DNA from: Trueperaceae bacterium
GTDB lineage: Bacteria > Deinococcota > Deinococci > Deinococcales > Trueperaceae
Length of the DNA: 64,000 nucleotides
Assembly (NCBI GenBank): GCA_965215565.1
Contig: CBDCDZ010000004.1
Coordinates: forward strand, 4,064,001 to 4,128,000
Reading direction: 5' to 3'
Within the stretch, counting starts at the first letter, position 1, and every line of letters starts with the position of its first letter. Both the position numbers and the translations under genes were made by a program. Of the stretch, positions 7,817 to 55,444 are shown piece after piece. The notes below the pieces were generated by a model, which searched no databases, was not told where the DNA came from, and saw only the letters and a program-made list of their open reading frames with translations.

Positions 7817-8175
7817 ATACGAGGTTGCACGGCTTAAGTAGGTGCATCGAAATAACCTAAACTAGAGAATGTCAACGAAGTCCGTTCTGAGCGTAAAAAC
7901 TTCCTCGAGATTGTTTAGATTATTGAAGCCGAAGTACTTAGTTTTACAAACTAAGCCGTGCCCTTCACGGATGGGACGTAAACTCGGCCCAAGCCCGCTC
8001 TCAGGCGAAGCCGTTCCGCTAGGCTCTGCCTGAGAGCTGGACGGCTAAAGCTGAGTCGCTGAAAAGCTCTATGCACGAAATACAGCCGCGTGCTCCCGCC
8101 GTCGCATACGCTCCCGCTAGCCGCTAGGCGAAGCAACGCCCTCAGTTGGGGTAAGTAAACTGTGCAATTCTGTAT
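7817..8175. mobile_element. ATAC...GTAT-family composite MITE (long, filled copy)
   Basis: Ends ATACGAGGTTGCACGGCTTA / TAAGTAAACTGTGCAATTCTGTAT match the short copy at 55343-55444. Confidence 0.8.
7837..7938 (+). mobile_element. AGTA...TACT-family MITE nested in the ATAC element
   Basis: TA on both sides; homologous to the reverse complement of 34804-34904; absent from the copy at 55343. Confidence 0.8.
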
Positions 8176-9077
8176 CAGTAGGTTTCTTCGCCGTTCGCCA
8201 GCCACCTTGCACACTCCTCCCCGAGTTCTTCAACAGCGCTTTTTTCGTACGCCGCGACCTCTTCCGCCGTGAGCGTTTGCTGCCAGCGCCCGTTCGTGCC
8301 CTTGTTGATAAAGGTGCGAGCGCCGCCTTCCCAGATGGCGTCCGCGCCAGGCACCACCGTGCCCGCGTTCCGCTTCATCCAGTCGAACGAGCAGTACCCG
8401 ACGGTCTCCTCCCACCGCGTCTCGTCGATATGGACGTCCAAAAACGCCGCGATGCGCCGCATCTGCCCCGGCAGGTCGCGTTTGAGGTCGTCAAAGTGTA
8501 GGAGCATGACGTTGGGCAGCTCGCGCTGCGCCCACCAGCCGCGCACGTGCTCCCAGAAGGGCCAGAAGGGATAGCCGTCCCCCTCGAACCACTCGCGCCA
8601 GAAGAGGTGAACGTCGCCTGCGGGCGGCTCGAGGGGTGGTCCGACTCGTCCAGGTGCGCTGTTGATCGCCTCGTAGAAGGCGGGCGTAAACGCGCGGAAG
8701 TGGTTGTACAAACTCCACGCAATATCACGCCCGTCGCGCCCGACGTAGAGGTATTGCGCTTTGGGCGAGAAGACGAGGGCGTCTACGGGGAGGTGGGTCT
8801 TGAAGACCCGCCGGTGCGTCTGCGCCTCCACCTCAGGCAGCTTCACCTCTTTCGGGGGAAGGCGCAAGTCGAGCCAGGGAGATAGTTTTGTAAGCTCAAG
8901 TTCAGGGTCAGGACCGAACAGCATCTGAGCCGCGATTTGCTGCGTCCAGGTTGAGCCTGACTTGCCGTAGTTCGCCACAACAATGTCATCGTCGCGGAAC
9001 GTCAGGTCGTTCCAGATGCTCGAGTCCATATGGTGGTTATGCATCTCGCGGGTTTTTTGGGGCCAAGTTTGGTTCAT
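8175..9077 (-). CDS. PAPS-dependent sulfotransferase
   Basis: YGKSGSTW PSB loop, KTHLP, RDGRD and KGTNGRW motifs. Confidence 0.92.
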   Translation of the reverse strand: MNQTWPQKTREMHNHHMDSSIWNDLTFRDDDIVVANYGKSGSTWTQQIAAQMLFGPDPELELTKLSPWLDLRLPPKEVKLPEVEAQTHRRVFKTHLPVDALVFSPKAQYLYVGRDGRDIAWSLYNHFRAFTPAFYEAINSAPGRVGPPLEPPAGDVHLFWREWFEGDGYPFWPFWEHVRGWWAQRELPNVMLLHFDDLKRDLPGQMRRIAAFLDVHIDETRWEETVGYCSFDWMKRNAGTVVPGADAIWEGGARTFINKGTNGRWQQTLTAEEVAAYEKSAVEELGEECARWLANGEETY

Positions 9078-9394
9078 GATTCCCTTTCCTTTATAGCTAA
9101 GAGCAGCGCGACGCCCGGAGACGTTCTGTGAGAGAGCGTCTCAACACCTCGTGCCCAGTATTTGGTGCCCGGCACTTAGTGCCCGGTACTCAATGCAACG
9201 CACAGCAGGACGAACTATATGCACAGCTCGTCGGCGGTGCGGTATTCTCCCGACGAAGGCAGTCGTCTACCGAGCTGAGACGCGAGCGCCCACCCTCGTG
9301 GAGCGTCAATCACCCTCTTCTGGCGGCGAGAAGGGTGCCCCTTGAACCCCTAGCCTCTCTAAGCTCAGCTAATCTCTACGGCACCCTCTGCACT

Positions 9395-10468
9395 TCAGTC
9401 GAGCAGTACCAGAGATTCAGGCTTTGTTACCGTCACCGCGCCCGTAGGGGCAGGGTCAACGGCTCCTTCTAGCGACAGCACATCGTCAAAGCGCAAAACA
9501 GCGTTCGTCGCCTTGTCGCCGACGTAGAGCGCCGAGCCGTCGAAGGTGAGGTCAGAGGGGTTGCCCAGCCCTGAGTTAGGTCCCGCAAGTTGCGCTTTGA
9601 CCTCAGTATCGCCTTCGGCTCCGCTCGCGTTCTCGATGACGAAGAGCTTGCCGTCCGTGCCAAAGCCAAGCTCGTCCGAGTCTTTCGCGGAACCGAAGTC
9701 CGCGACGATGAGCGTGTCTTGCTCGGGCAAGTGGATGATGCCGTGAAGGTTAGCTGAGGCTTTTTCGCCCCCTAGCGTCGGAACGATGACGCGCTCAGGA
9801 CCGCGCTCGCCCCGCCTTAATAGGTAGTCGTTGTAAACGAGAATGACGCCGTCGGTCGTCGCGACGAAGAGACGCTGCTGCGCCGGGTCAACCGCGAGGT
9901 CCCAAGGTTGGCGCGGTTCGCCTGCCGAGGTTTGCCCTAAGTCGGTGATGTTGAATAAGGGTGCTGCGTCCCCCTCCGCCTCCGTATCAAACCCCTTGAC
10001 CGTATTCGTGCCGAAATCTGCGACGCTCACGACGCCGAGCGTGCTGTCCACCACCAACCCTTTAGGCTGATCTAAACCCGTCGCTGGACCGTGAATATAA
10101 CGTACTTCAGCAGGTCCCTCCATGAAGCGCGGGATGACGAGGAGTCCACCAGGGGTGTCTTCGGTCGTGCCAACGTCGAAGCTGAGCAGCGCGGTGCCCT
10201 CCTCTTTCAAGCAAATGTACTCGAGGCTAAGCGCTTCACTCAACACGCCTTCGCCCGCTGTAAGCAACTCAGTAGCAGTTGAGAGGTCGCCTTGTAGCGC
10301 CAGCACTTCTGAGGCGGGGTCGGTCTCTAAAATTGCCAACGGCGGCTTGCTTATCGCGAGAAGTTTTGCGCTGTCCAACGCTAGAGCGTCCTGGGCTTGC
10401 GCCAAGCTAGGAGCAAGTAGAGCGAAATACAAAAGATATAGGGCGTGGCGTAAGGTCATATGAATCAT
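9395..10468 (-). CDS. Secreted beta-propeller (NHL-like) protein of unknown function
   Basis: Signal peptide ending AQA; repeated PKGL/PWDL/PSDL-x-VAD blades. Confidence 0.6.
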   Translation of the reverse strand: MIHMTLRHALYLLYFALLAPSLAQAQDALALDSAKLLAISKPPLAILETDPASEVLALQGDLSTATELLTAGEGVLSEALSLEYICLKEEGTALLSFDVGTTEDTPGGLLVIPRFMEGPAEVRYIHGPATGLDQPKGLVVDSTLGVVSVADFGTNTVKGFDTEAEGDAAPLFNITDLGQTSAGEPRQPWDLAVDPAQQRLFVATTDGVILVYNDYLLRRGERGPERVIVPTLGGEKASANLHGIIHLPEQDTLIVADFGSAKDSDELGFGTDGKLFVIENASGAEGDTEVKAQLAGPNSGLGNPSDLTFDGSALYVGDKATNAVLRFDDVLSLEGAVDPAPTGAVTVTKPESLVLLD

Positions 10469-10787
10469 CGTTCTCCCATTTATGTCGAGGTCTAGGTGGA
10501 TACCGGGTTCGGGTTTCGAAACGAGCTTATGGCGCTCGACATGACCGAGCCCTGACCCGCATGAATATGAAATGAAATTCTTTAAGGAAATTTCAAAACA
10601 GATAGTTGGTTCGGATTTTGAAACGCAATAACTGAAAAGTCGTGTCCGCTAAACAGTTTGGATGAGCGCGTACAGGTACTGTTCCTATGTCTTGGGCTGG
10701 CTTCCGCTGGGTTTGCTCATCAGCTTAGATTCAAGGGTACAAGGACGGTGCAGAAGGTAAAAGGGGCTACCTTTAGTTCTGCTTGAC

Positions 10788-10963: not shown

Positions 10964-11350
10964 AGCGCGCACATTTTGAGATGGTATCTGCGCTCATCCG
11001 TCTCAGTATGTTTTGGAAATGCTATTAAATTAGCGTTTCCACGTTTCATTGCTGTAGCAATGAAACGTGCTTGTCGGATGCGTTCACGAAGTCGCCAGTG
11101 GGAGCGAAGTGACGCGCAAGCCTTAGAAATAAATGCAGGGCAGTTGGTGCAGCGAAGCGTGGAACTGCTAAATGAGGCTTGCGCTATTCCAATTCAGTAC
11201 TTCTGTGGACTGCTTTATAGCAAGTATCATTTGGTTTGAGCCAATCTGAGAAGAGGGAACGTAGTCTAGCGCGCACGTTCGGGAATGATACTTGCGTGAT
11301 TCAAGCTCAGTGCTTATGTGAATTGCTTTATATCGTGGAACTGCTGTGTA
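10964..11350. mobile_element. Pile-up of TAGC-family elements and fragments
   Basis: Right-half fragments at 10964-11024 and 11171-11215; element TAGCGTTTCCACG...CGTGGAACTGCTA at 11031-11170; full copy at 11218-11328 flanked by TA. Confidence 0.75.
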
Positions 11351-11429
11351 TAGTGGGATGCGTGAGCCTAGAAGGTCGGCGAATTTGAACCGAAGCTAGC
11401 CCAAGAGGTGCACCTCAAGCTCAGCTACC

Positions 11430-12089
11430 CTAGCGCCGTAATACCCAGACGTTCTCTTTCACCGGGCGCATACCCTTTAATCCCTCAGGAACGTCCAGGC
11501 TTTCTACGAGCGACGGATGATAAACACCTCTATAGCGCCGCTCAACCTCCTCTTTGCTGACCGAGAAAGGCGGACCTTCAAACAAGCGCTGGTCGAATTC
11601 GTAAGTGATCAGTAGTTGCGGTGCACTGCGTGTTATTTCCGTCAAGTGCGCTGCATACCGCTCACGTACAGGTTCAGCTAGAGCAATGAGCGCCGCCCTG
11701 TCGTAAACTGCGTCAACGGAGCCGAGCATCTCGCCGGACACGCTGAAGACGTCGCCGACAAAGATGTCCAGGTGCGCCGCGCTGTAGCGCCTCACCTCGC
11801 TCAAGTCTGACCTCTTTGGCTCGACGCCTAACTCCTGAAAAAGTTGCTCGACAGCCCCCTCGACGAGTTCAGCACCTATGACGTAGTAGCCCTGGGCGAG
11901 TAGCCAGGCGATGTCGAGCGTTTTACCGCAGAGGGGTACGAACACGCGGCTGCCCTGCAGAAGTGAAAGAGCACTAAAATGTTTGACTAGCGAGGGGTTC
12001 ACTTCGCTTTTGTGAAAGCCAATGTTGTCGTTTCGCCACCTCTCAAACCAAAGTTCTCTCTGCGTTTCAACGTTCTCGTTCTCAGTCAT
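11430..12089 (-). CDS. tpm: Thiopurine S-methyltransferase family
   Basis: W..RW...NIGFH, RVFVPLCGK, YDRAALIAL and GPPFSV motifs. Confidence 0.92.
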   Translation of the reverse strand: MTENENVETQRELWFERWRNDNIGFHKSEVNPSLVKHFSALSLLQGSRVFVPLCGKTLDIAWLLAQGYYVIGAELVEGAVEQLFQELGVEPKRSDLSEVRRYSAAHLDIFVGDVFSVSGEMLGSVDAVYDRAALIALAEPVRERYAAHLTEITRSAPQLLITYEFDQRLFEGPPFSVSKEEVERRYRGVYHPSLVESLDVPEGLKGMRPVKENVWVLRR

Positions 12090-12172
12090 AAGCGCTCCTA
12101 CAGGATGAGTTTGAACCAGGTCCATAGCTAAGTTGACGAACAAGCCCTTGTCGGCAGTTGGAGTACAAACCC

Positions 12173-12673
12173 TCACGGCGACACTACGCCTAGCAAATCG
12201 TCCAGGTCGAGTCGCCCTGTAACCATTGCAAAACTCCCGTCCGGCTTGCGCGGCCACACCTCTTGCGGACGGTCCCAGCATAGCTCCACCCCATTGCCGT
12301 CAGGGTCACGCAGGTACAGCGCTTCGCTGACGCCGTGGTCGCTCGCGCCGTCTAAGGGAACACCGGCGGACATCAGGCGGCGCAGCGCGTCTGAGAGCGC
12401 GGCGCGCGTCGGGTAAAGGATAGCGAGGTGGTAGAGCCCGGTCGTGCCCGCAGGAGGCGGCGATCCCCCGAGGCTCTCCCAGGTGTTCAGCCCTATGTGA
12501 TGGTGATAACCGCCCGCTGAGACGAAGGCAGCTTGTGAACCGTAGCGCAGGGTCAGTTCGAAACCGAGAACGCCGCAGTAAAAATCGAGGGCGCGCTCTA
12601 TATCTGCGACTTTAAGGTGGACGTGTCCGATGCGGGTGCCGGGGTCTATCGGACGAGTATCGTGCTTGGTCAT
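12173..12673 (-). CDS. VOC/glyoxalase family protein (CatE-like half)
   Basis: IGHVHLKV, YHHHIGLNTW and DHGVSEALYLRDPDGNGVEL motifs. Confidence 0.88.
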   Translation of the reverse strand: MTKHDTRPIDPGTRIGHVHLKVADIERALDFYCGVLGFELTLRYGSQAAFVSAGGYHHHIGLNTWESLGGSPPPAGTTGLYHLAILYPTRAALSDALRRLMSAGVPLDGASDHGVSEALYLRDPDGNGVELCWDRPQEVWPRKPDGSFAMVTGRLDLDDLLGVVSP

Positions 12674-12718
12674 GGCTGCCTCCACAAAGTTTGAAGAAGG
12701 TGTTGTCGTGGCTGAGTA

Positions 12719-12764
12719 ATACAGTTCCCGGTTGATTTCTGTAGAAATCAACCGGGAACTGTAT
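12719..12764. repeat. 46-bp palindrome of the ATAC...GTAT family
   Basis: ATACAGTTCCCGGTTGATTTCT-gt-AGAAATCAACCGGGAACTGTAT with perfect 22-bp arms. Confidence 0.9.
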
Positions 12765-13901
12765 CAGTTTGAAGGCGTGTCGTCCGGCATGGGCACGTGG
12801 GGAGTTCCCACAAAACGTGATGTTGGCTGTATCTCCCCGCCGTACCAGGAGAGGGCAAGGGAGATATCGAGGTCTTTCTCTGTCCAGATTCGCGGCTCCC
12901 AATCCGGCTCGAAGATCAGGTAGCCTTCGTCGCCGTACACCTCGATACGGTTGCCGCCTGGCTCAAAGAAGTAGAGAAAAGCGCCCTGCGCGATGCCGTG
13001 CATACCGGGACCGGAGGCGATCTGGACGTCCTGCTCGCGGAGTATGTTGGCTAGGTCCGACGTGTGTTGCGAAATTCCGTAATAGAAGGCTACGTGGTGA
13101 AGGCGGCCTTTCGAATTGGTGCCGTCTCTCGCCAGCGCGACATCGTGGTTGATGTTGCTGTGGGACAACCACGCGCCCCTCTCGACTCCTTCGGTAATGA
13201 GCATCTCGCGTAGGCGGGTCCCCATAGCTTCCTGGTAGAACTCCCGAATGAGGGAAACGTCCGAGGCAAAAAGAGTGACGTGGTCGAGGCGGCGGACCGG
13301 CACGCCAGTCAAGGGACGCTTCTGCGGGCGGTTGAGGAGCGGCGAGCGCTGGTCCTCAGGGATGACGGCACGTTCCACCTCCCAGAAGAAGGTGCTGAAG
13401 ATGACCGTCGGGCGTGCGGTACGCATAGGCGGGACCGTAGCCAGCCTCGGACTCGGTCCAGCCCACCCCGCCCCCCATCTGCTCAATTTTTGCGACGCGG
13501 CGCTCGAGCGCCGCCTGCGACGTAGCACGCCAGCCCACGTGACCCAGCCCGGCCTGGTCGCTCTCGGTCAGCTTGAGCGAGTGGTGGTAGCTCTCCTCGT
13601 AGCCGCGCAGGTAAACGGACGCGCCATCACGCTCTGTTTCTTGAAGCCCCAAAAGGTCTTTGAAGAACCGAACACTCTCGTCCATCTTAGGGGTCAACAG
13701 CTCGACATGGCTTATTTGAGCTACGCCGAAGATAGGCTTCTGATTCGCCATGTCGTACTCCTCTTTTGCGTCCGTTAGAGACGCGGTAGGTTGCGTCCCT
13801 GAGCGAGCTTGAGCTAGGAAGCTGCCTCCGAGTGCCGCGCCGAGTGCCGCCCCGCCGCCCCGCTTGATCAGCTCGCGCCGGGTGATACCACGTTTACTCA
13901 T
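12764..13901 (-). pseudogene. Catechol 2,3-dioxygenase (type I extradiol) split by a 1-nt frameshift near 13390; N-terminal Tat-like leader
   Basis: SHVELLTP...HHSL in one frame; RRLDHVTL, RLHHVAF, GPGMHG and YFFEPGGNRIE in the other; junction CAC CTT CTT CTG G. Confidence 0.8.
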
Positions 13902-14144
13902 GTTGGCAGGGACATTGGCTCAGTAAGGGTGCCCTGACTAGAATTTGGTGTGCGCTACGAATAGATGTCATATCGAAACCTCCTCAGTTTCTGAAAGGTT
14001 GACCTAGATTTAGTTGACCTATCAATCTTTCTGATTCAAGGGTAAGAGGATAGTGTAGGAGGCAACAGGGGCAATCTTTAGCTCTACTTGATTTATTTTG
14101 TGGTCTTCTTATGGTTTGCTCTTTCCGCTCGTTTGCGTTGCGCC

Positions 14145-15257
14145 CTACTGACTGGGCACAAAGCGCAACGTAAGCACCTCGGAAGAGGTCGCGCCACTCG
14201 CCGCTTCTGCTCGCAGCTCGAGGCGGTTCTCCCCCGGTCTGAGCCCAGAGAGCGTAAAGGTAAAGCGGTTGCCCGAAAGCGGGGCTTCTGTGAGCGGGGC
14301 ATCTCCAAGTCGGTAGCTCAATTCGCGCACGTCTTGCCCTACCGCGCCGCGCACAATGACGCTGTCTGTAGTGAGAGTGGACCCGTCAGCGGGGCTCGAG
14401 ACTTCAATCACGCGCTCTGTAGCAGGAGCAGAGAGCGTGACGCGGCTCAGCGGGTCAGTGGGTTGCGGGCTGCCGCCGGGTGGCTCTAAGCTTAGGTAGA
14501 GCGACGCGAACCCTTGAGTAGACACACCGAAAACGCTATTTTGCGAGACCGTAAGCGAGGTGAGCTGCTCACCGCTCTGCGGGCTCCAGTCGTCGCTGGT
14601 GTGCCCCCAGGCTTGGTAGACGCGCCTATCTGGGGGCGGCTCAGCTAGGACGAAGAGCGCTTCGCCGGGGCGCAGCAGCGCCGCGCCAACCTCTTGGTCA
14701 GCGTCGTCGTAAAGGGTGGCAGTCTGCGCGTTGGGCGCACTTAAAAATTCTGTCACAAGCGCCTGCTCTGCCCGGAGTTGCTGAAGCGTAAGCTCAGCGC
14801 GGTACGCCCCAAATAGCCCACCACCCGCCAGGACCAAGCAGGCGGCGCAGGCAGCCGTGAGCCAGCGAACCGTCCGGGGCGAGGCGTAGCGAATGACGTT
14901 CGTGGGTTCAGCCTCTCTATATGGTTTTGTATCTGTCTCTACATCCGTCTTCGCATCTGTCTCTAAGTTAATGTCTTCTGTGAATGTAGGAGTGCCCAGA
15001 GGTTCCGCGTCCACTTCCTCAACAGGCGCAGAGGGGGCGGGCTTATCCCTGATTCGGTCCAAGAGGCCAGCCTTGACTTGGGGCGGAGGTTCAACCTCAG
15101 GTAGCGCGTCAACCCAACCCGTCAAAGTTGCGTCGAAGCGCCGCACCTCTTCGCGGCACGCTTCGCACGTCTCCAGGTGCGCCTCGACCGCTACCATCTC
15201 GTCAGAGTTCAAGAGCCCCAGGGCGTAGTCGGGCAGCTTCTCTTTAGGATGCGCCAT
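14145..15257 (-). CDS. RskA-like anti-sigma factor with zinc finger, TM segment and extra C-terminal Ig-like domain
   Basis: HxxxCxxC (HLETCEAC), TM helix, YQAW and LEPPGGSPQPT motifs. Confidence 0.85.
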   Translation of the reverse strand: MAHPKEKLPDYALGLLNSDEMVAVEAHLETCEACREEVRRFDATLTGWVDALPEVEPPPQVKAGLLDRIRDKPAPSAPVEEVDAEPLGTPTFTEDINLETDAKTDVETDTKPYREAEPTNVIRYASPRTVRWLTAACAACLVLAGGGLFGAYRAELTLQQLRAEQALVTEFLSAPNAQTATLYDDADQEVGAALLRPGEALFVLAEPPPDRRVYQAWGHTSDDWSPQSGEQLTSLTVSQNSVFGVSTQGFASLYLSLEPPGGSPQPTDPLSRVTLSAPATERVIEVSSPADGSTLTTDSVIVRGAVGQDVRELSYRLGDAPLTEAPLSGNRFTFTLSGLRPGENRLELRAEAASGATSSEVLTLRFVPSQ

Positions 15258-15804
15258 GATCCCCGTGCTCCCCACTCTCCATCGCCCCGCGCAGCTTGAG
15301 CAGGGCGCGTCTGATCTTGCTCCGGATTGTACCAAGGGGTTTTTGCTCGAGTTCTGCGAGTTCCGCGTAGCTGTAGCCCAAGAAGTAGGCGTGTTCGATG
15401 AGGTGGCGCTCTTCTGGGCTGAGCTGCGCAAGGCCGCGCTCGAGCCATAAGCGTGTAACGTCCGGTGAGGCGAGGTCCGACGCGAAGGGCAAGCTAGGGT
15501 CGTGAACGTCCCAGGCGTCCGACTTGAGCGGGCGCGACTGACGCTTGCGCAGCCGTGAATGCGCCGCGTTACGCGCCAAGGTATAGATAAACGCACGCGG
15601 TGAGCGCTCCCAGGTGTGATAAGACGTATTCACATTGAAAAGTTTGTAGAAGACCTCTTGAGAGACCTCCTCAGCCTCCTCGCGGCTACCAAGTAAGTTA
15701 AGCGCCAGGGTGTAGACCTTGGTTCCTAACCGGTCATAGAGTTCACTTAGGGCTGCTTCGTCGCCCTGTGCGGTGCGCGCGAGCAGTGCGGCTTCGGGGT
15801 CCAT
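15244..15804 (-). CDS. ECF sigma factor (SigK-like)
   Basis: GDEAAL..LYD, AEEVSQEVF and SYAELA...PLGTIRSKIRRAL; overlaps the anti-sigma start. Confidence 0.92.
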   Translation of the reverse strand: MDPEAALLARTAQGDEAALSELYDRLGTKVYTLALNLLGSREEAEEVSQEVFYKLFNVNTSYHTWERSPRAFIYTLARNAAHSRLRKRQSRPLKSDAWDVHDPSLPFASDLASPDVTRLWLERGLAQLSPEERHLIEHAYFLGYSYAELAELEQKPLGTIRSKIRRALLKLRGAMESGEHGDHGAS

Positions 15805-16396
15805 GTGCCTCGCTTTAGGTGGGGCGCTTAGAGCGGTACTGAGCCAAGAGGTCCTCAAGGGGCAGCGCCCTTTTCACGGTGGACAGCGTGTGGAGAGAAC
15901 AGCGTAAGGCGGAGTAATCTTCGTAGCATTGTAACCTCGCATTACAACCTCCGAGGCTGTCCACTATAAGAAACGCAGGTTCCAGGCTTTTGTATGCGTA
16001 GAGGTGCAGATGGTAGAGCGTGGGTTGTGTCCGGTCCTAAAGACTCGGTCTAATACCGTCTCCGGTTGAATACGAAATAAGTGGTTTGTACTTAACCCGA
16101 GATGCAAGTTGAAATCCGTACAACTCGGCACACGCTTTACCCACACCCTCAATGTTTCCTCGCCTCCAACTGCAACATCCACACTTCTAACGTTCTCGAC
16201 GGCTAAACGTCTAAACAGAGCGTCCTGCTTCGCTTCACCTAACCCTAGTGCATATACCCGGTCCTTCTCTGCGTTTCTGTAAATGAGGAGGGAAGTTTGC
16301 AGCACGCCCGAAGACTAGGGCGAGAGTCTCAGGCTGCGATTACTACTAACTAGCGAGTCATCACCCTAAAACCCCTATTCATTCAAGGAGATACAC

Positions 16397-18106
16397 ATGA
16401 AAGCACTTCATCCATCCGGACGACTCTGGCGCGTCATCGGCTTCGCCGCAGGGCTTCTACTCGCCGCGTGCTCTACGGACACGGCGACACCTGAACCCAA
16501 CGTGCAGAGGGCAGACTTCACGGTCTTTGTTCTCGCCACTAGCGAGGTCGAGGCAGATACCAACACGCTTCAAGCGACGCCTTGGACGCTCGAGCGCGGA
16601 GCCGGCGAAGACGTCCAGGGAGAGGGCCAAGCCGTCGGCGAAACCCCCCTCATTCGGGAGCGCGTCCACACCATGCAGGTAAGCGCCCAGCCGGGCGACG
16701 AGATGACCCTGAACGTCACGATGGGCGCGGGCGAAACGGTGGGCGTTGGACCCTTCAGCCTCTTTGACGGCGCTGGGCCCGCTAATGGTGAGGTGTTGAG
16801 TCAGGGCAACTTGACGGTCGTGGCGAAGCCGAATTCGCTGGCGACGGCTGCGCTAAAGATCGCAACCGTACAACCCGTTGCTTTCAGCGATATCAAGCTC
16901 TCGGGCGACGCCGAAGTGCCCCCCGTCGAGACGGACGCCTCAGGCGAAGCTGCGCTTTTGCTCATCGACAACCTCCTCTTCGCGGTCGGGCGTTTCAGAG
17001 GATTGCAAGGTGAACTGTTCGAGGTCGAAGGGAGCCCCGCTCACATCCATCAGGGCGCGGCGGACGAAAACGGCGACATCGTCTTCGACCTGGCTGCAGC
17101 TGCGAACGAGGCTGGCGACGGCTTTTTCGTCGGACTGGGCAGCCTAGAAGATGAAGAGGTCTTACGCCTCGGAGCGGGCGAGCTTTACATTAACATCCAT
17201 AGCACCTTTAGCGAGTCCGGCGAGCTGCGTGGTCAGATCACCCAAGGTGAGCAGGTTGAACAGCCAGATGAGGATGAAGCGGGAGCGCTCACGCTCAGCG
17301 TCGCGGAGAGTGACGCGTTCGGCGAATACATCACGGATAGTGAGGGTAACAGCCTCTACCTCTTCACCAACGACACGCGCGGCGCAGATGAAAGCACCTG
17401 TAACGGCGAGTGCGCCGAGACCTGGCCCGCGCTGACCTTTGACCCTGACGAAACGAGTCTCGAGGTAGCTGACGGCTTAGACGCGGACCTCTTAGGCAGC
17501 TTCGAACGTGAAGACGGCAGCGTCCAAGTTACCTACAACGGCTGGCCGCTCTACAATTTCTCGGGCGACGGTGAAACGGGCGATACCAATGGACAAGGCG
17601 TCGGTGAGGTCTGGTTCTTAGTCAACCCGGACGGCACCCGCAATATCCCCGATGATGAGTCGGATGAAGACGAGGGTGACGAAGTGGGCGTCCAGCTCGA
17701 GACCCGCGAGAAAGACCCCTTCGGCGCGTACATCACCGACAGTGAGGGCAACAGCCTCTATCTCTTTTTCAACGACGGGAAACGCTCGAGCCAAAGCAAC
17801 TGCAACAATGAGTGCGCCGAAACCTGGCCTCCTCTGACCTTAAGCGAGGGCGAGACGGTTACCGTCGCCGAAGGCAGTGGTTTGGACGCGGACCTCTTGC
17901 GCAGCTTCGAGCGTAACGACGGCAGGGTCCAGGTGACTTACAACGGCTGGCCGCTCTACCGCTTCTCGGGCGACGACGCGCCGGGCGACACAGACGGTAC
18001 GGCGGTGAACCTCTGGTTTTTAGTCACGCCGGACGGCGACGAAAATCTGCCCGACGAGGCGGGCGGTGATGTCAACGACTCAGTGGCCGAGCAGCGTGGG
18101 GACTGA
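16397..18106 (+). CDS. Lipoprotein with a CHRD domain and duplicated COG4315 (Lipoprotein_15) domains
   Basis: Lipobox LAAC; AHIH..G and LYINIHS...GELRGQ; two copies of LYLF..D..C...CA..WP...QVTYNGWPLY. Confidence 0.85.
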   Translation: MKALHPSGRLWRVIGFAAGLLLAACSTDTATPEPNVQRADFTVFVLATSEVEADTNTLQATPWTLERGAGEDVQGEGQAVGETPLIRERVHTMQVSAQPGDEMTLNVTMGAGETVGVGPFSLFDGAGPANGEVLSQGNLTVVAKPNSLATAALKIATVQPVAFSDIKLSGDAEVPPVETDASGEAALLLIDNLLFAVGRFRGLQGELFEVEGSPAHIHQGAADENGDIVFDLAAAANEAGDGFFVGLGSLEDEEVLRLGAGELYINIHSTFSESGELRGQITQGEQVEQPDEDEAGALTLSVAESDAFGEYITDSEGNSLYLFTNDTRGADESTCNGECAETWPALTFDPDETSLEVADGLDADLLGSFEREDGSVQVTYNGWPLYNFSGDGETGDTNGQGVGEVWFLVNPDGTRNIPDDESDEDEGDEVGVQLETREKDPFGAYITDSEGNSLYLFFNDGKRSSQSNCNNECAETWPPLTLSEGETVTVAEGSGLDADLLRSFERNDGRVQVTYNGWPLYRFSGDDAPGDTDGTAVNLWFLVTPDGDENLPDEAGGDVNDSVAEQRGD

Positions 18107-18109
18107 GCG

Positions 18110-19120
18110 GTGTCGCAACGCAAATACCATATAACCGAACAACGCGAAACGACGCCGACGCACTCGGTGCTTGAAGGTATGCAACCTGACCTAACCGACG
18201 AGACCTTAGAGGGCGCACCTGTCAACGTAGCGCTCCAAACGACCTCGGGCGATTCTCCAGACCGGCAGAGACTGCTGACCCTCTCCTTGAACAAGAAGAT
18301 GCAGCGTGCAGTTTTGCATAGCCTTGTAAAATTTGCACCTAAAGCCGCCCTCCAAATCGCCTTCTACAACCTGCTCAGCCCGCGCCTTGGACGCTTGTAT
18401 CACGAGGATGATTTGCCCGTGGGCGCAACCTCTTTCATACTGCCCTATAAGAGGAGCTTTCTGCGCGGCTATAGCTGGGGCGTAGGTGACAGGGTGGTCT
18501 ACCTCGTGCACGGTTGGGAAGGCAATCTAGGGCGTATGCGCAAGTTTGTCGAACCGCTCACCTCTGCGGGTTTCAGAGTTGTCGCGTTTGACGCGCCGAG
18601 CCACGGGCGTTCCGGCAAACAGCTCACCACCTTGAAGGACGTCAGCGCTTCACTGGCGGACGTTGTGACGCACTTCGGTCCTCCGCACGCAATCATCGCT
18701 CACTCGTTGGGCGCAGCCGCGACCGCGCTCACGCTCAAGGAGAAGCCCGCGCTCCTCCCCGCTGCACTCGTTTTCCTCTCGCCGATGAAGTCGCTGCGGG
18801 AACACGTCGATATCTTTAACCTCGCCGCCCAGCTTCCGCCGCACTTAGCAGACGCGCTGACGGCGCAAGTCGAGCGTTACGCGAAGCTCAGCGTGACCAC
18901 AACCGACTTCGGGCGCAACGTCGCCGCGTTACCCATAAAGGGACTTCTCGTCCACGACGAGGAAGATGACATCGTCCCCTTCGCCCCTACGCAGCGCGTC
19001 GCAGAACGTTGGCGCGGCGCGGCGCTCTACAAGGCGAGGGGCCTGGGGCACCGCGGCGTCCTCTACGACGCGGCGGTCATAGGGCGTGTGACGCGCTTTG
19101 TGGCAGACACAGTCCGGTAG
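18110..19120 (+). CDS. Alpha/beta fold hydrolase
   Basis: LVHGW, AHSLG, HD..D and GLGH motifs; start codon uncertain. Confidence 0.85.
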   Translation: MSQRKYHITEQRETTPTHSVLEGMQPDLTDETLEGAPVNVALQTTSGDSPDRQRLLTLSLNKKMQRAVLHSLVKFAPKAALQIAFYNLLSPRLGRLYHEDDLPVGATSFILPYKRSFLRGYSWGVGDRVVYLVHGWEGNLGRMRKFVEPLTSAGFRVVAFDAPSHGRSGKQLTTLKDVSASLADVVTHFGPPHAIIAHSLGAAATALTLKEKPALLPAALVFLSPMKSLREHVDIFNLAAQLPPHLADALTAQVERYAKLSVTTTDFGRNVAALPIKGLLVHDEEDDIVPFAPTQRVAERWRGAALYKARGLGHRGVLYDAAVIGRVTRFVADTVR

Positions 19121-19690
19121 AGGCTCGAGGTTCATATGTGCACATAGCAAGTGACCTCAGTCAAGCCCCCGGTACTTACGCAGCACTGGGGGTCAAACTT
19201 TGAATATTGGTCTCGCTGGAGCCTACCTGAAATCCATCAGTAGATGCCGTGCAGATCGAAAAGGCCGCTCAAGAACTGCCTTTTGCGCTCCCTGAAGCGC
19301 TACCGAGTAACGTAAAAACGAAGCAGCTCTCATCACTTCTAACGAGCCGTGCATATAGTTCGCTCTGCCTTGCGTTTCAAGAAGTAGAGGAGCGAGCCCT
19401 GAGCGTATTGAGTTCTCCCACGAGACGCGCTAAAGCAGACCGGACAACACCTGCGCTCGCTTCCGACTCTAACTACAAGGAAAGGAGGGCGTGAAGAGAC
19501 CCTACTCGTAAGAGGAGCGTGCTTTATCCGCCGAGGGCGTTTCGCAGAAGCAACGCACCTGTGTTCGGGGAGAGGAGGCGAGAGACGAAAAGCGCATGTT
19601 CTCTCGGAAGTTTAGGGAACGTCAGATGACGAACCGGAGTGGCTGTTTCGCCACCAGGTTTACCGCACATAGATCACAGAGAGGAAACTT

Positions 19691-20158
19691 ATGCACACCC
19701 CACTACTCAGAACATTTGTACTCGCGTCTCTCATCGCGGTGCTCGCCGCCTGTTCAGGCGTTGACGCACCTGCCGCTGCTGACGAAGTGCTAGAGACGTC
19801 ACAGAACGACCCTGGCGCTTTCGCTAACGGGGTTGAGGGACCCGCTTCAGACAGACCGGGTCGCGCCGGTGTTTGCTTCTACAGCCTGCCCAACTTCCAA
19901 GGTCGCTCACTCTGTTATCGCCAATCACGACCTGGCTTAGCCCCAAGTGGTACTACTCTTCCCGTCGGCGGGATACGTCCTTCATGGAACGATAGGGCGA
20001 GTTCGCTCATCGTCTCGAGAGGCTGGGACGTCGTCACGTACACTGACGGGGTCTTTCGTGGTCGCGCTGTCGTAGCTGGTGATGCCAACTTCGAACGCAG
20101 GGTGCCACGGCTCACGTTCGACAACAACATGTCATCATTTAGGCTCATCAAACAGTAG
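19691..20158 (+). CDS. Lipoprotein with a beta/gamma-crystallin-like domain
   Basis: Lipobox LAAC; CFY...NFQG, WNDRASS, F.G and DNNMSSF Greek-key motifs. Confidence 0.7.
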   Translation: MHTPLLRTFVLASLIAVLAACSGVDAPAAADEVLETSQNDPGAFANGVEGPASDRPGRAGVCFYSLPNFQGRSLCYRQSRPGLAPSGTTLPVGGIRPSWNDRASSLIVSRGWDVVTYTDGVFRGRAVVAGDANFERRVPRLTFDNNMSSFRLIKQ

Positions 20159-20461
20159 TGAGGGGTTTCGGTTAACCTTCCGGCACAGCAACGCCCGCTT
20201 GTTGGAGGTGTGGTCAATCACTATGAGTTCAGACTGCGTTTGTAGCTGCTCTAAACTCATACAGGTCAGTTCTTGATCTGAGGTTGCGCTGAATCCAGGC
20301 AAATTTGGATAAAGCCCGTCTCTAACGCAAGGCAGGCTCATAAAAGTGTCCGAACTATCATCAAGGGGTAGCTGAGTTTAGGCTCAGCTACCCTAGGCCT
20401 TAGCCCTTGCAGCGCTCGCAGGCATTGCGCTACGCACCACAAAACTTTAAGAGGAGAAACA

Positions 20462-20745
20462 GTGGCTAAGTTAGAAGAAGCACCAGCGCCTAGGTTAGAA
20501 GGAGAAATCGCAACGGTGACACTAGGGGACGCCCGCAGGATCATCGCCGCCGCCGAGAAAAAGGCTGAGGAAATTGGTGAGCGTATGAATATCGCCGTGG
20601 TTGATGTCGGGGGGAACATCGCTTCGCTTTGCGAAAACTTCGTAACGCCCACGTGCATATGGACGGTGGCTGCATAGGCAGCATCGACGATTCAGTGAGA
20701 AAGGCGTACACCTCGAGCGCGTTTAGAATATCTGAAACACCACGC
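20462..20745 (+). pseudogene. GlcG/HbpS heme-binding protein, frameshifted and truncated
   Basis: IIAAAEKKA..NIAVVDVGGN, then AHVHMDG..IGSID...KAYTSSAF in another frame. Confidence 0.75.
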
Positions 20746-20888
20746 TGCCCTGCTTCTGGACCCGCTTCTTGGAAGGCGAGGGGCGCGCACGGATTCTCAG
20801 CGACTCCAGGTTGTTCGCGTGCTCTGTCCGCCCAACCGGACAGGCTGTGCCCACGGCAGGGGGATATCAAGTACTTCATGATTTGCTT

Positions 20889-20948
20889 GAGCCGTGTGCG
20901 GTGAAAGTCGCGCGCACGGTTCTTGGGGGCGGGAGGCCGGTGACGGTC
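20889..20948 (+). mobile_element. Group II intron 3' remnant (domain V and first half of domain VI)
   Basis: GAGCCGTGTGCGGT-GAAA-GTCGC-GC-GCACGGTTC: 34 nt, AGC triad, GNRA loop. Confidence 0.88.
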
Positions 20949-21075
20949 GTGGGGTTGATGGTGCCGCACGCGGTCAGGCTCCTGCTCGGTCCCGACCACC
21001 GCACGCTGCTGCCCATGAGCATGATTTTGGGCGGGACATTCATGGTGCTCGCCGACTTAGCCGCCCGCACCGCTC
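20949..21075 (+). pseudogene. BtuC/FecCD permease fragment
   Basis: VGLMVPHAVRLLLGPDHRTLLP...LADLAART. Confidence 0.85.
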
Positions 21076-21806
21076 GTCTTTGCGGCGCTACGGTTCACCA
21101 CTGCTCGCCCTATCAGAAGGATATCCCTGCTACGGCAGAGGTACTCGAGTCCGTCCACCGCTTCGCGCCGACGCTTCTTTGGCTCTGTCACCCTACCAAC
21201 TCTACAGGTCACGCTTGGCGGGTAGGGGATTTGCGGAAGCTCGCCGAGAGGTGTCAGGAACACGAAGCCTTGCTCGTCCTAGACCTCGCGTACCTGAACT
21301 TTCTCGAGCGCCTCACCCACCACTTACCTCTCCCTTTACTTCACAACGCGGTGCAGCTCTACTCCCTGACTAAGAGCTTTCGGCTGCCGGGCGTCCGCGC
21401 GGGCTACGCGCTCGCGTCCCCTGAGGTCGTGAACGCCTTGGAGCGGAGCGCTCCGCCGTGGCAGATGAGTGTCCACGCGCAAGCCGCTACGGGGTGGGCG
21501 TTCTCCGACGCCGGACGGACGTTTTTGCGGCGGACGCTGCCCGAGTTAGGAGAGGTGAGGCGCGACTTCCAGGCGAAACTTCGTACCCTCGGGTTGCAGG
21601 TTCGGGATACGAGCGCGAACTACTTCTTAGTCGAGGTGGGCGACGCAGTCATCTTTAAGCAAGCCGCCTTGCGAGCGGGCTTCCGCGTGCGCGACTGCGC
21701 GAGCTTCGGCTTGCCGACTCAAGTGCGCCTCGCCGCGCAGCAGCCGCGCGAAAATCAGACGTTTTTGGCGTGGCTCGAGTCAGGCTGGTTACCCGAAGGT
21801 GGCTAG
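21076..21806 (+). pseudogene. cobD: CobD-like threonine-phosphate decarboxylase (PLP class I/II), N-terminally truncated
   Basis: LCHPTNSTG, DLAY, SLTKSF..PGVRAGY, ANYFL and VRDCASF; sits in a cob context. Confidence 0.7.
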
Positions 21807-22680
21807 AGCGCTGATGGTCCAGGGCTGCACCTCGGACGCGGGCAAGTCGTACCTGATAGCGGGCTTGTGCCGCTTTTATGCGAAGCGCGGCGTCAAGGTC
21901 GCGCCCTTCAAGGCGCAGAACATGAGCAACAACGCGGGCGTCACGCCTGAGGGGTTAGAGATGGGACGTGCGCAGCTCTTGCAAGCCCAAGCCGCCCGCG
22001 CCAGCCCCGAAGTCCGCAGGGGCTGACGGACGAGGTGGCGCACCTCGCTAAGCTCGGTGTGCCCATTTTGGGGGTCTGCGGCGGTTTGCAGATGCTCGGA
22101 CGCGCAATTCGTGACCCTGACGGGGTCGAAGCTACCGGGAGCGCGAGGGGCTTGGGACTGCTCGACGTGACAACCGTATTCGCAGGGGATAAAGTCACCC
22201 GGCAGACCACAGCGCATCTCCTACCTACGGGGGACACCGTTACGGGTTACTAGCAGTTCCACGACATACTGAGACAGTTGAGCGCAGATCTCTGTCCGCA
22301 AGGACTAGCGTTACGGGCAGGCCGCCCTGCCGTTGCGGGATTTCATCCCTCGAAGTGCGTGCTAGACTGTTCATTTCTCACTAAGGGTGTTTCTGACCAG
22401 ATGATACCTGCTATACGAAATACATCATGGGCGAACCCGAGCAGGGAAGGGTGCGCGACCCTTACTCAGCGGCGGTCTAGGCTTTATTCAGGGTAATGTG
22501 ATGGGCGTTTACGCCCACGGCTTGTTTAGCAGCGCCACGTTTAGACGGTGGTTTCTAGGACACCTTGGCGTTCAAGCGTCTCAGCGGGACTGGCTCACCC
22601 ACGTAGACGCCGCGCTCGACACGCTCGCCGATCACCTGGAAGAGCACCTGGATGTGTGGACGCCATTGACAGGGCGCTCG
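21799..22680 (+). pseudogene. cobQ: Cobyric acid synthase with internal deletion, MITE insertion and frameshift
   Basis: [37 protein letters not shown] split by an element, G.Y.HGLF. Confidence 0.9.
22251..22413 (-). mobile_element. TAGC-family MITE inserted in cobQ
   Basis: TAGCAGTTCC...ATACCTGCTA flanked by TAC on both sides. Confidence 0.88.
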
Positions 22681-23261
22681 AGGTCCGCAAGACGCCCCCA
22701 TCATCAGCAAGGCTCTACTTCATCACGGGGGGCGCGCGTTCGGGCAAGTCGCGCTACGCAGAGGCGTTGGCAAAGCATCTGGGACAGGACAATATCACGG
22801 TGATTGCCACGCTCGAGCCCTTAGATGACGAGATGGCGCGCCGCGTCGCGAAGCACAAGGCGCGGCGTCCTGCGAATTGGCGAACGCTCGAGGCACCTCT
22901 GGACTTACCGCGAGCTGTTCTACGAGCACCGACGGAGACCGTACTCGCCGACTGCTTATCCGGCTTCGTCTCGAACCTGCTGCTCAAACATGAAGCGGAG
23001 GGGGAAGAGGCGGCGCTCGAGCAGGTCTTGGGGGCGGTCGACGCGCTTATCCGAGCGGTGAAACAGAGCCGAAAAACAGTAATCGTCGTTAGCAACGAGG
23101 TGGGGGGCGGTGTCGTGCCCGCGTACAGGCTTGGGCGCTGGTACCGCGACGCCTTGGGGCTCGCCAATCAGCGCGTCGCGGCGGCGGCGGACGCGGTGAG
23201 CCTGGTGACGGTTGGGCTTCCCAAAAGGTTGAAAGGAGCGTTACCGGAGCTTGCCGAGTAG
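22680..23261 (+). CDS. cobU: Adenosylcobinamide kinase/guanylyltransferase domain (no own start codon seen)
   Basis: ITGGARSGKS, H..RRP..W.T.E, DCL, VSNEVG.G and RD.LG.ANQ motifs. Confidence 0.8.
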   Translation, partial: EVRKTPPSSARLYFITGGARSGKSRYAEALAKHLGQDNITVIATLEPLDDEMARRVAKHKARRPANWRTLEAPLDLPRAVLRAPTETVLADCLSGFVSNLLLKHEAEGEEAALEQVLGAVDALIRAVKQSRKTVIVVSNEVGGGVVPAYRLGRWYRDALGLANQRVAAAADAVSLVTVGLPKRLKGALPELAE

Positions 23262-23333
23262 TCAAGCAGTTTCACCAAGTACAGTAGAAAAGCCTAAAAG
23301 ATGGTGGCAATTTGGAAAACGTAGGGCCTAACC

Positions 23334-23714
23334 TCAGTCCTCACACTCCGCCGTAATACTCGTCCCCCACCGGTACGCCTCCACACACGGCACACCTACG
23401 CGCCGAATGGAAAGCGAATTTTGAACATTTTCCTCTTGATACAAGCGAGCGGAGGCGAGCACCGTCGCGCCTCTTGGAGCCCAGAAGCGAACGGTGTGCG
23501 GATAGCGTGAGGTGACGCCTTCGCCTAAGCGGTCTAGGGGGTTGCCCCTCGAGTAAACAAGCGGTTCGGTAGTCACGAGGTAGCGTCCTTCGAAGGGCGT
23601 GCCGATTTCACCCTCCCAGGTGATGGACTGCGGCACGGGTCCGCCAAACAAAAAATAGAGTGCGCCGATAACGAGAATACTGAATAGAGAGATTATGCCT
23701 AGCATCACTTTCAT
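23334..23714 (-). CDS. Hypothetical membrane-anchored protein (paralog of 23947-24342)
   Basis: N-terminal TM helix; shared GGPV..IT.EG..GTPF.G.Y and C..Y.WG..TA.CE. Confidence 0.75.
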   Translation of the reverse strand: MKVMLGIISLFSILVIGALYFLFGGPVPQSITWEGEIGTPFEGRYLVTTEPLVYSRGNPLDRLGEGVTSRYPHTVRFWAPRGATVLASARLYQEENVQNSLSIRRVGVPCVEAYRWGTSITAECED

Positions 23715-23946
23715 GGCGTCAATGTACCGCGCGCGAAAGAGGTCAACCGTGAGGTTAAGTGCAGATGCTTCTCCTTGCGCTTTTTGTAGTTTGTTTCACA
23801 TACAGCCCGCAAGTTTAGCGCGTCGCTTACAATAGAGCGTGCTAGGGTGAAACGTCCCTACCCGTCCAAGCGCCCTGTGCTGTAAGTTAAAACCGCGCCT
23901 CAGCGTGTCTTGAAACTGGCTAACTTATTTAACTCGAGGAGAACTC

Positions 23947-24342
23947 ATGTCCGCTCTACCCTTTGAAATTCGTATCTTTCACCTCTTTATCGGCGCGTTC
24001 GTGCTCGTCGTGCTGCTCGCGGCGTACTACGTCTTGGGAGGTCCGGTCATTCACGTCATCACCTTTGAGGGAAAAGAGGGAACACCCTTTCAAGGAAGTT
24101 ACGTGGTCTCGCGTCGATCTCAGAGTACGCCCTCAGAAGCGCTCGCGTCGGCTAGAAACAGCATCGAGGGAGAGTATCCCTTTACCGTTTTCACCTGGGC
24201 ATCGAAAGACGCTTACATTTTAGCGGGCGCACGCATCGCCTTAGAACAAAATATGTACAACACCATTACGATTCGCCGCGCCGGGGTGGTGTGTAGCAAG
24301 GGGTATACCTGGGGGCAAGCGGTCACGGCGGCGTGTGAGTAA
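23947..24342 (+). CDS. Hypothetical membrane-anchored protein (paralog of 23334-23714)
   Basis: GAGGAG RBS, N-terminal TM helix, colinear similarity to the divergent neighbour. Confidence 0.75.
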   Translation: MSALPFEIRIFHLFIGAFVLVVLLAAYYVLGGPVIHVITFEGKEGTPFQGSYVVSRRSQSTPSEALASARNSIEGEYPFTVFTWASKDAYILAGARIALEQNMYNTITIRRAGVVCSKGYTWGQAVTAACE

Positions 24343-24344
24343 GA

Positions 24345-24417
24345 AGCAATGAGCTGAAAGCAATGAGCAATGAGTCGAAAGTCTTCGGTTTTCACTCATT
24401 GCTCGTTTCTCATTGCT
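24345..24417. repeat. GCAATGA heptamer inverted-repeat element
   Basis: GCAATGA repeats facing TCATTGC repeats; near-identical inverted copy at the window end. Confidence 0.75.
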
Positions 24418-24667
24418 ACCCCCTCGGCGGGTCCTCCTCCCCCCGGTGCTGGTAGTTGCCAGCGTCGAACTCTTGGGGCGTTAGTTTAACTAATCCGTCG
24501 CCCTCCTCTTGCTCTAAAATCACCATGTCAATCTGCTTGTCCGCCACGCGAAAGCCGCGTCCCACGCCGTCCACGACGATGTCGTTTACAGTGAGGTTAT
24601 CAAAAGTTGCGCTGTACGTGGAGTCGTTTATAACGTCATCTGTAGGGTTGTAGCTCGGATCGTCCAT
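24416..24667 (-). CDS. Hypothetical acidic protein
   Basis: ATG immediately after the TAA of the upstream gene. Confidence 0.55.
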   Translation of the reverse strand: MDDPSYNPTDDVINDSTYSATFDNLTVNDIVVDGVGRGFRVADKQIDMVILEQEEGDGLVKLTPQEFDAGNYQHRGEEDPPRG

Positions 24668-34702: not shown

Positions 34703-34976
34703 TAGCAGTTCTCATTGCTTGGACGAAGTCATGCGAAGTAACACTTCTCCGCAGATTTCACAGCTTCGCTGTAACGGAACTTCATCCCTGAAAGTGCGTG
34801 CTAAGTACTCCAGCCTAAATAATCTAAACTATTTTGGAAAGATTTCTCCCTGTAAGATGCGTTTCGTCAACCTCTTTAGTTTAGGTTATTTCCACGCACC
34901 TACTTAGGCAATGTTCTTTTTAGTGAGAGTGTTACTTCGTATAGCTTCGCTCAAGCTGACCAAATGATACCTGCTA
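34703..34976 (-). mobile_element. TAGC-family MITE, long composite copy
   Basis: TAGCAGTT...AATGATACCTGCTA ends, TTCATCCCTGAAAGTGCGTGC core, extra inverted repeats. Confidence 0.75.
34804..34904 (-). mobile_element. AGTA...TACT-family MITE nested in the TAGC element
   Basis: TA on both sides; reverse complement aligns with 7837-7938. Confidence 0.8.
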
Positions 34977-42365: not shown

Positions 42366-42367
42366 AA

Positions 42368-48493: not shown

Positions 48494-48522
48494 ACCGTCA
48501 AGCATTATCTTTCAGTTGAAAC

Positions 48523-50688: not shown

Positions 50689-50717
50689 GTTGGATAGGCG
50701 TCCAAAAACAGTCGTTT

Positions 50718-50895: not shown

Positions 50896-50928
50896 TCTAC
50901 CAAATGTACCTACTATAAGGAGTTCGCC

Positions 50929-51969: not shown

Positions 51970-51974
51970 ACGAG

Positions 51975-53915: not shown

Positions 53916-53926
53916 AGGCGCAGAGG

Positions 53927-54319: not shown

Positions 54320-54378
54320 GAGGCAGAGTTTAGCACGCGCCCTACCGCCTTTCTGTCACCTCCCTGATAGCGTGAGGT

Positions 54379-55308
54379 GTGACTCCCTACGCTCGCATCC
54401 CCGTCTTAGCTGCGCCCACCGCGTCGGGCAAGAGCGCGCTGGCGCTCGAGTTCGCCCAGGCGCTGCCCCTAGAGATCGTCTCCGCCGACGCCATGATGGT
54501 GTATAAGGGCATGGACATCGGCACGGCGAAACCTACCGTAGCGGAGCGGCGCAGCGTGCCGCACCACCTCATCGACATTGTGAGCCCAGACGAACCTTTC
54601 AGCGTCGCGGACTACGTGAAGCGCGCCGAGGCGGCCGTCGCCGCTGTTTTAGAGCGCGGCAAGCTTCCGCTCATCGTTGGTGGGACGGGCTTTTACATCC
54701 GCGCCCTGTCCGAGGGGCTGCCCACCGTTCCTCCCGCTGACACGGACGTGCAAGCGCGACTCTGGGCGCGCTTGAAGCGTGAAGGTTTGGACGCGCTCGT
54801 GGACGAGCTAGACGCCTTTAGCCCCGAGGACTCGAGACGAGCGCAGCGCAACCCGCGCCGCGTGGTCCGCGCTCTGGAAATCTTGGAGCGAACCGGGCGC
54901 GCGCCGAGCAGCTTCGCGAAAGAGGTGCCCCGCTTCCGCTACGACAAGGCGGTCTTGCTCCCTGATGTGGACCTGTTAAGTACGCGCATCGCCCTCAGGA
55001 CGGAGCGCATGTTTGGAGCCGGGCTCACCGAGGAGGTGCGGGGTCTCTTGGAGCGCTACCCTGCGCGCCCCACCGCCACGCAAGCGATCGGCTACAAAGA
55101 GGTCGCCGACTATTTGGAAGGGCGCTACACCTTGCGTGAAGCTAAGCAAGCTGTCACGCTCGTCACGGTGCGCTACGCCAAACGTCAGCGCACCTGGTTC
55201 CGCAAGGAGCCGGGGGCGGTGCGCTACCCCATCGCAGAGGCGGCTGGATTTGAAGAGGTTGCGAAGAGATTGCGGGGCTGGATAGAACAGTTCGCTCCGT
55301 CCAAATAA
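54379..55308 (+). CDS. miaA: tRNA dimethylallyltransferase
   Basis: PTASGKS, DIGTAKP, GGTGFY, QAIGYKE and YAKRQRTW motifs. Confidence 0.97.
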   Translation: MTPYARIPVLAAPTASGKSALALEFAQALPLEIVSADAMMVYKGMDIGTAKPTVAERRSVPHHLIDIVSPDEPFSVADYVKRAEAAVAAVLERGKLPLIVGGTGFYIRALSEGLPTVPPADTDVQARLWARLKREGLDALVDELDAFSPEDSRRAQRNPRRVVRALEILERTGRAPSSFAKEVPRFRYDKAVLLPDVDLLSTRIALRTERMFGAGLTEEVRGLLERYPARPTATQAIGYKEVADYLEGRYTLREAKQAVTLVTVRYAKRQRTWFRKEPGAVRYPIAEAAGFEEVAKRLRGWIEQFAPSK

Positions 55309-55342
55309 TTTCGTTCAGATAATCTGTCGCGGGTGCGTACTA

Positions 55343-55444
55343 ATACGAGGTTGCACGGCTTAGTTCGCAAACTAAGCCGTGCCCGTCCGTGACGGTAAGC
55401 TTAGACGCCCTCTGTAAGGATAAGTAAACCGTGCAATTCCGTAT
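55343..55444. mobile_element. ATAC...GTAT-family MITE (short, empty copy)
   Basis: ATACGAGGTTGCACGGCTTAG / TAAACCGTGCAATTCCGTAT; internal GCACGGCTTAGTT / AACTAAGCCGTGC hairpin. Confidence 0.8.

Follow-up and report, generated by a model that had tools for sequence, protein, structure and literature searches.

Why should one small mobile element be found inside two others within a single stretch of DNA, and does it choose such sites or merely persist there? The question is raised by a 64-kb window (C4:4064001-4128000) in the genome of a Trueperaceae bacterium (Deinococcota), labelled G000 here and consisting of four contigs totaling 4.49 Mb with 58% G+C. In this window, copies of a ~100-bp repeat, the AGTA element, interrupt members of two other repeat families, ATAC and TAGC. 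Plain coordinates below are window positions and those prefixed C4: are genome positions. An earlier note on this DNA had proposed that several TA-targeting miniature elements preferentially land in each other as safe havens and build composite structured units. Our analysis points instead to one TA-duplicating miniature inverted-repeat transposable element (MITE), likely of IS630 type, whose repeated insertion at the same TAs speaks for a part played by target choice in the nesting.

The AGTA element and its copies

Copies of the AGTA element were counted across the whole genome with BLAST and with nhmmer, using a hidden Markov model (HMM) built from 13 copies. There are 17, of which 13 are full-length, three are diverged (C4:487330, 620363 and 4293984) and one is split by a TAGC element (C4:2710713-2710925). 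All are small and non-coding (94-103 bp), and all 17 lie in spacers between genes. Fifteen copies retain both ends, and every one of these has a TA on either side, whereas a single TA is found at the homologous empty sites. The ends are 28-nt imperfect inverted repeats (19 of 28 positions matching) with a distinctive layout: an AGTA tip and nine poorly matching bases are followed by an inner block, AAATAAYCTAAACTA, in which 14 of 15 positions match.

The family comprises two subfamilies, A and B, that are ~73% identical to each other, and the window holds one member of each. The subfamily A copy lies at 7837-7938 (plus strand, 102 bp), with TA at 7835-7836 and 7939-7940; the subfamily B copy lies in inverted orientation at 34804-34904 (minus strand, 101 bp), with TA at 34802-34803 and 34905-34906. 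In genome BLAST the first is 100% identical to C4:1705021-1705122 and the second to both C4:687522 and C4:3126871, giving two identical subfamily A copies and three identical subfamily B copies. The TA flanks and common arms that the earlier note had described are present, with AAATAACCTAAACTA and GTTTAGATTATT near the ends of both window copies. That note had also staked its proposal on a significant alignment between the two, and they align end to end, at 73% identity over 102-103 nt in a whole-genome BLAST (E 3e-7); the mean column identity is 78% when the flanks are included in the alignment.

Folding of the two window copies, modelled as single strands, is no better than that of shuffled sequence (z-scores of +0.34 and -1.36). 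We therefore rejected the idea that the AGTA element is a structured unit. An assignment as an IS200/IS605-type palindrome-associated transposable element or as a repetitive extragenic palindrome-like element was likewise rejected, because TA is duplicated and there is no excess of folding. Among 100 other genomes of the family that were searched, the element is present in one, G035, which belongs to the same genus; two of the copies there form a head-to-tail tandem (locus L037, G035:C1:3669775-3672877, positions 1418-1603). Judged by these sequence features, the AGTA element is a genuine MITE confined to its genus.

Insertion into other repeats

Both window copies interrupt another repeat whose uninterrupted form is found in the same window. 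The subfamily A copy is inserted in an ATAC-family element at 7818-8174 (plus strand; ends TACGAGG...CTGTA; flanking 3-mers TTA and TCA), at a TA in the 5′ arm of a 13-bp hairpin. This target TA is unoccupied, at 55361-55362 (CGGCT-TA-GTT), in the ATAC copy at 55343-55444 (plus strand). The subfamily B copy occupies the central TA, position 50-51 of the family HMM, of a TAGC-family element at 34703-34976 (minus strand), and the corresponding TA is empty in two uninterrupted plus-strand TAGC copies at 22251-22415 and 57443-57578 (GTGC-TA, with the TA at 22363-22364 and 57527-57528, respectively). These empty sites, which had been claimed from the window sequence, are thus real. In addition to the two hosts then recognized, the AGTA element was found in a further family, TACGGATTCYGG...CCGGAATCCGTA, which contains the copy at C4:242109; the window copy of this third host family, at 5191-5256 (plus strand, TACGGATTCTGG...CCGGAATCCGTA), carries at TA 5241-5242 the empty homologue of the filled site. 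The three host families are unrelated, and empty sites for all three lie within the window.

To detect empty sites throughout the genome, both flanks of each AGTA copy were joined by a single TA and matched to other loci across the junction. For nine of the 17 copies the insertion site proved to be within another repeat or at its edge, and their joined flanks match between 8 and 264 uninterrupted repeat copies across the junction, many more than chance would give. The same procedure was applied to 2,500 random intergenic TAs with a threshold of at least three junction-spanning matches, and 505 of these controls (20%) fell in repeats (binomial P 0.003 for 9/17). The comparison with TA-matched controls that the earlier note had called for therefore places nesting above expectation. 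The association with the TAGC repeat is particularly marked: of 18 AGTA-type elements, counting a relic described below, eight are inside this repeat or lie at most a few bases from one of its ends, although it holds 9.5% of intergenic TAs. Nesting is also reciprocal, in that the split AGTA copy (C4:2710713-2710925) contains a TAGC element at GAGA-TA-GTT, with TA duplicated.

Recurrence at single TAs

The positions of the nested copies within their hosts are not scattered. Four AGTA copies (C4:687522, 3126871 and 3659104, and the window copy at 34804-34904) are inserted at HMM position 50-51 of the TAGC repeat. In 200 full-length TAGC copies this TA accounts for 137 of 1,581 TAs (~7.9 per copy); when internal TAs alone are counted, roughly six per copy, its share is 137 of 1,245. 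From these counts, the chance of four internal insertions falling at any one common position is ~0.001. The four insertions represent both orientations and both subfamilies, and the inserts resemble one another far more closely than the surrounding host flanks do, so we regard the insertions as independent. Similarly, the 5′ arm of the ATAC hairpin contains a TA at which two AGTA copies are inserted, in opposite orientations. A single insertion was found in the third host family (C4:242109), and four further AGTA-type elements are located at TAGC tips (C4:487330, 793756, 1097294 and the relic).

The sequence around the target TA is also mildly biased. A TAG/CTA context is found at 14 of 18 AGTA sites against a background of 50% (P 0.016), and the extended TAGC/GCTA context at 8 of 18 against 18.6% (P 0.011). 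IS630 itself prefers CTAG. The TAGC motif as sole cause of the nesting was rejected, since just 14% of the intergenic sites with this motif fall in the TAGC repeat. The reuse of single TAs is an argument for a contribution of target choice to the nesting; from sequence alone, the tolerance implied by a safe haven and active choice of target cannot be told apart.

The notion that the nested elements build composite structured units was not borne out. No composite of host and AGTA element recurs as a unit in the genome, so multi-copy composites do not occur, and the folding results given above do not indicate structure. At C4:793756 in G000, and again at L033 in G035, an AGTA element adjoins an ATAC tip. 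Apart from the two elements themselves, which are 76% identical over 234 nt, the two loci have nothing in common, and the arrangement may be either an old composite or the product of insertion at the same preferred TA.

An IS630 relic with an AGTA-type left end

Elements of the IS630 family insert into TA and duplicate it (PMC2170065, in extract), and we searched for an enzyme of this kind that could have moved the AGTA element. A 949-bp relic at C4:1933674-1934622 has TA on both sides and ends of apparent AGTA type. Its open reading frame (ORF) encodes a DDE_3 domain (Pfam E 1e-19) that covers only positions 134-299 of the 299-position NF033545 model, indicating that the N-terminal, DNA-binding half is missing. 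When the 24-mer at the left end of the relic was searched on the genome's two strands with as many as five mismatches allowed, all 13 matches were AGTA left ends or the relic itself. At its right end the relic reads GGAGTACT-TA. A similar right end is carried by an intact IS630 relative with two ORFs in G049, a genome of another genus; the protein of this relative is 71% identical to that of the relic. The ends of the G049 element are AGTACACCGTTAA, and its terminal sequences differ beyond AGTAC. Taken together, the TA duplication and the left-end match with the resident relic suggest that the AGTA element was likely moved in trans by a transposase of the IS630/Tc1-mariner type, and that it is likely an IS630-type MITE with a defective resident parent.

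Searches for a closer parent covered the genome, its relatives and wider collections. The relic protein was compared with 100 other genomes of the family (101 with G000) and was matched in 22 of the 101, G000 included; this tally takes in the unpublished genome G033, on which no claim rests. None of the 22 yielded an element with AGTA ends, and the closest intact relative, in G049, has other ends. In the genome collection, the left-end pattern was found in one stretch, from a Trueperaceae metagenome-assembled genome, which contains two tandem copies of the MITE. In metagenomes the pattern matched seven stretches, all of them short chance matches (at most 28 model positions), and tblastn of the relic protein gave no matches. 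Within the window there is no IS630 match, and no transposase family was found among 61 ORFs scanned against Pfam, which were hand-picked, mostly as the longest at each place, from 106 ORFs of at least 100 aa; this agrees with the earlier statement that the window encodes no mobilising enzyme. A second, two-ORF IS630 element at C4:411545-412662 was considered as the mobiliser and rejected as the parent, as its ends (TACCAAACTG..., with a TAA duplication) are unlike those of all three families. Long dispersed repeats were also considered as candidate insertion sequences (IS) and dismissed, since most are paralogous genes at ~65% identity and the true IS copies have unrelated ends.

Several observations weigh against this parentage. 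The 5′ third of the relic is a mosaic of other small repeats. Only AGTACTCC and scattered bases are common to the right ends of relic and MITE, so the proposed parentage rests mainly on the left end. No intact IS630 gene was found in the whole genome with PF13358 and NF033545, which detected broken or partial genes only, and the other IS630 copies are broken or have unrelated ends. More broadly, no intact cognate transposase with AGTA ends was found in the genome, the 100 family genomes, the genome collection or the metagenomes searched, although some AGTA copies are 100% identical. The genome-wide search for an IS630 transposase with these ends that the earlier note had suggested thus led to a TA-flanked DDE_3 relic with an AGTA left end, and to nothing intact.

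The host repeats

The AGTA, TAGC and ATAC families differ in the duplications that they generate. TAGC is a ~500-copy repeat, for which the HMM gives 583 hits, including 200 that are full-length. Its core measures 111 bp and its ends, TAGCAG...CTGCTA, have only TAGCAG in common. The 3-mers flanking it are identical in 94 of 137 copies, with no fixed sequence, which indicates a 3-bp duplication and no specificity for TA; the TAGC copy inside the AGTA element at C4:2710713-2710925 duplicated just TA. The ATAC family has about 25-28 copies and its true ends are TACGAGG...CCGTA. It also makes a 3-bp duplication, which is TAA in most of 12 aligned copies and TTA/TTA and TCA/TCA in two. Therefore, of the "several TA-targeting elements" originally proposed, only the AGTA element duplicates TA, and the three families were presumably moved by different enzymes. 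The TAA, TTA and TCA duplications of ATAC resemble those of IS630 lineages that duplicate TNA; no ATAC parent was found, and the two-ORF IS630 element at C4:411545-412662 also has a TAA duplication but differs from the ATAC family in its ends.

The ATAC and TAGC families carry other insertions as well. The ATAC element at 7818-8174 contains a second insert of ~155 bp (approximately 7975-8130) that starts at ...GATGG|GACGTAAACTCGG. At the same point, the ATAC copy at C4:4385916 has a 24-bp insert with the same starting bases, and parts of the ~155-bp insert recur about 30 times genome-wide. Among the 200 full-length TAGC copies, cassettes of 21-25 nt follow HMM position 23 (32 copies), 48-50 (37 copies), 71 (26 copies) and 76 (9 copies), and the site at 48-50 is the spot also used by the AGTA MITE. 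An IS110-family element (C4:681543-682807; DEDD_Tnp_IS110 and Transposase_20 domains; ~1.16-1.26 kb, with about seven further copies) sits inside the ends of TAGC repeats.

Two observations concern other sequences. The segments at 24338-24420 and 63876-64000 of the window belong to another repeat family with GCAATGAG-like units (122 BLAST hits in the genome). Bases 1-12756 of contig C3 (23,751 bp) are 99.98% identical to its bases 10998-23751, and the contig is probably an ~11-kb circular replicon assembled about twice over.

Discussion

We consider it probable that the AGTA element has been mobilised in trans by an IS630/Tc1-mariner-type transposase with biased choice of TA, and that this bias acts together with tolerance. 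The transposase would excise the element at the imperfect inverted repeats of 28 bp that form its ends and would reinsert it at a TA, and the choice of TA is likely to be biased by the TAG/CTA context and by certain positions in resident repeats. Insertions into junk repeats would be better tolerated than insertions into regulatory spacers, so that nested copies would accumulate. The cognate enzyme would now be defective in this genome, and the identical copies could stem from a recent burst by a transposase since lost or broken, or from cross-mobilisation. A simpler alternative, which we judge unlikely, is pure survivorship: the element would land in any TA and its copies persist where they are harmless, in which case nesting would be uninformative about target choice. 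Several observations lean this way or weigh against our own reading. No copy lies outside a spacer, and for 7 of 17 the spacer DNA is unique. The enrichment in repeats is only ~2.6-fold with n = 17, and the control sites come from an intergenic set defined by a crude ORF heuristic (85% coding). The TAGC motif alone, as noted above, does not explain the link to the TAGC repeat. In G035, none of eight AGTA copies (a small sample, from seven loci) is in the TAGC repeat, despite at least 126 candidate TAGC matches in that genome; one copy is next to the tip of an ATAC element and two form a tandem, and the absence of copies from so abundant a repeat suggests that the preference is not a fixed property of the element. 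Tolerance is, moreover, one of the two explanations offered by Croucher et al. for clusters of pneumococcal repeats (PMC3049150, in extract). What tolerance should not do is separate the roughly six internal TAs of a TAGC copy from one another, yet all four internal insertions are at position 50, an outcome with the low chance probability calculated above, and both ATAC insertions are in the same arm of a symmetric hairpin.

Two other explanations are very improbable in our estimation. One is that the nested copies derive from a single composite that was copied as a unit, or were spread by gene conversion between host copies. In its favour, C4:687522 and C4:3126871 have identical inserts in the same orientation, and on one side their flanks are similar over ~32 nt; the ATAC-tip arrangement found in both G000 and G035 could be read in the same way. 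The four TAGC insertions, however, cover both orientations and both subfamilies, their flanks have diverged far beyond the inserts and cannot be aligned on one side, the two ATAC insertions are in opposite orientations, and the G000 and G035 loci are alike only in the two elements. Chance nesting in repeat-rich spacer DNA is equally hard to credit. One in five of the intergenic TA controls is already in a repeat, but the binomial test on 9/17 speaks against chance, as does the finding that, of 18 AGTA-type elements, 8 are inside or adjoin a repeat holding 9.5% of intergenic TAs (P of the order of 1e-4, by arithmetic), and the same-site recurrences add further weight. A bolder extension of biased target choice is that the TAGC repeat is a shared landing pad, with resident MITEs giving a structural or sequence signal that is read by several unrelated mobile systems, and with the AGTA transposase homing into other MITEs instead of its products simply surviving there. 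This is suggested by the centre of the TAGC repeat, which takes the AGTA MITE (four independent hits) and cassettes of 21-23 nt (37 of 200 full-length copies), and by its tip, which takes the IS110 element; we offer it tentatively, as a doubtful though not negligible possibility.

Elements of comparable design are known. By analogy, the closest described counterpart of the AGTA element is RUP of Streptococcus pneumoniae, a ~107-bp repeat with TA termini and IS630-Spn1-like ends that is reported in or near IS elements (PMC2229807, in extract). Both are simple non-coding repeats of ~100 bp with TA termini; the ends of RUP are like those of an IS630-family element, as the AGTA ends probably are, and RUP too has been proposed to move in trans and has been reported in or near other mobile elements. 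The two occur in different phyla and their sequences are unrelated. Unlike RUP, the AGTA element has MITE-like repeats rather than IS genes as its hosts, reuses the same TA, and is accompanied by no intact cognate transposase. Insertion of repeats into one another has also been described in pneumococci, with a common site preference or regional tolerance offered as explanations (PMC3049150, in extract). With ISY100 and the IS630 family, the AGTA element and the relic have in common insertion at TA with its duplication, terminal inverted repeats and a DDE catalytic domain (PMC2170065, in extract); the resident relic differs in its 949-bp length and in the loss of the N-terminal DNA-binding part. 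Searches by nested-MITE phrases returned papers on plants and animals but none on same-site MITE nesting in prokaryotes, the existence of which is not thereby excluded, and a review of prokaryote MITEs contains neither the word "nested" nor text on IS630. Jiang and Wessler have reportedly worked on nested MITEs in plants.

The nested AGTA system is real and well documented; it is ordinary selfish DNA, and no new mechanism is shown. It is a clean case, backed by controls, of one MITE inserted in another in a phylum that has received little study. Filled and empty sites occur together in one window, and three co-resident repeat families show three types of duplication. The reuse of single TAs would permit a direct test of target choice by IS630-type enzymes beyond the TA itself.

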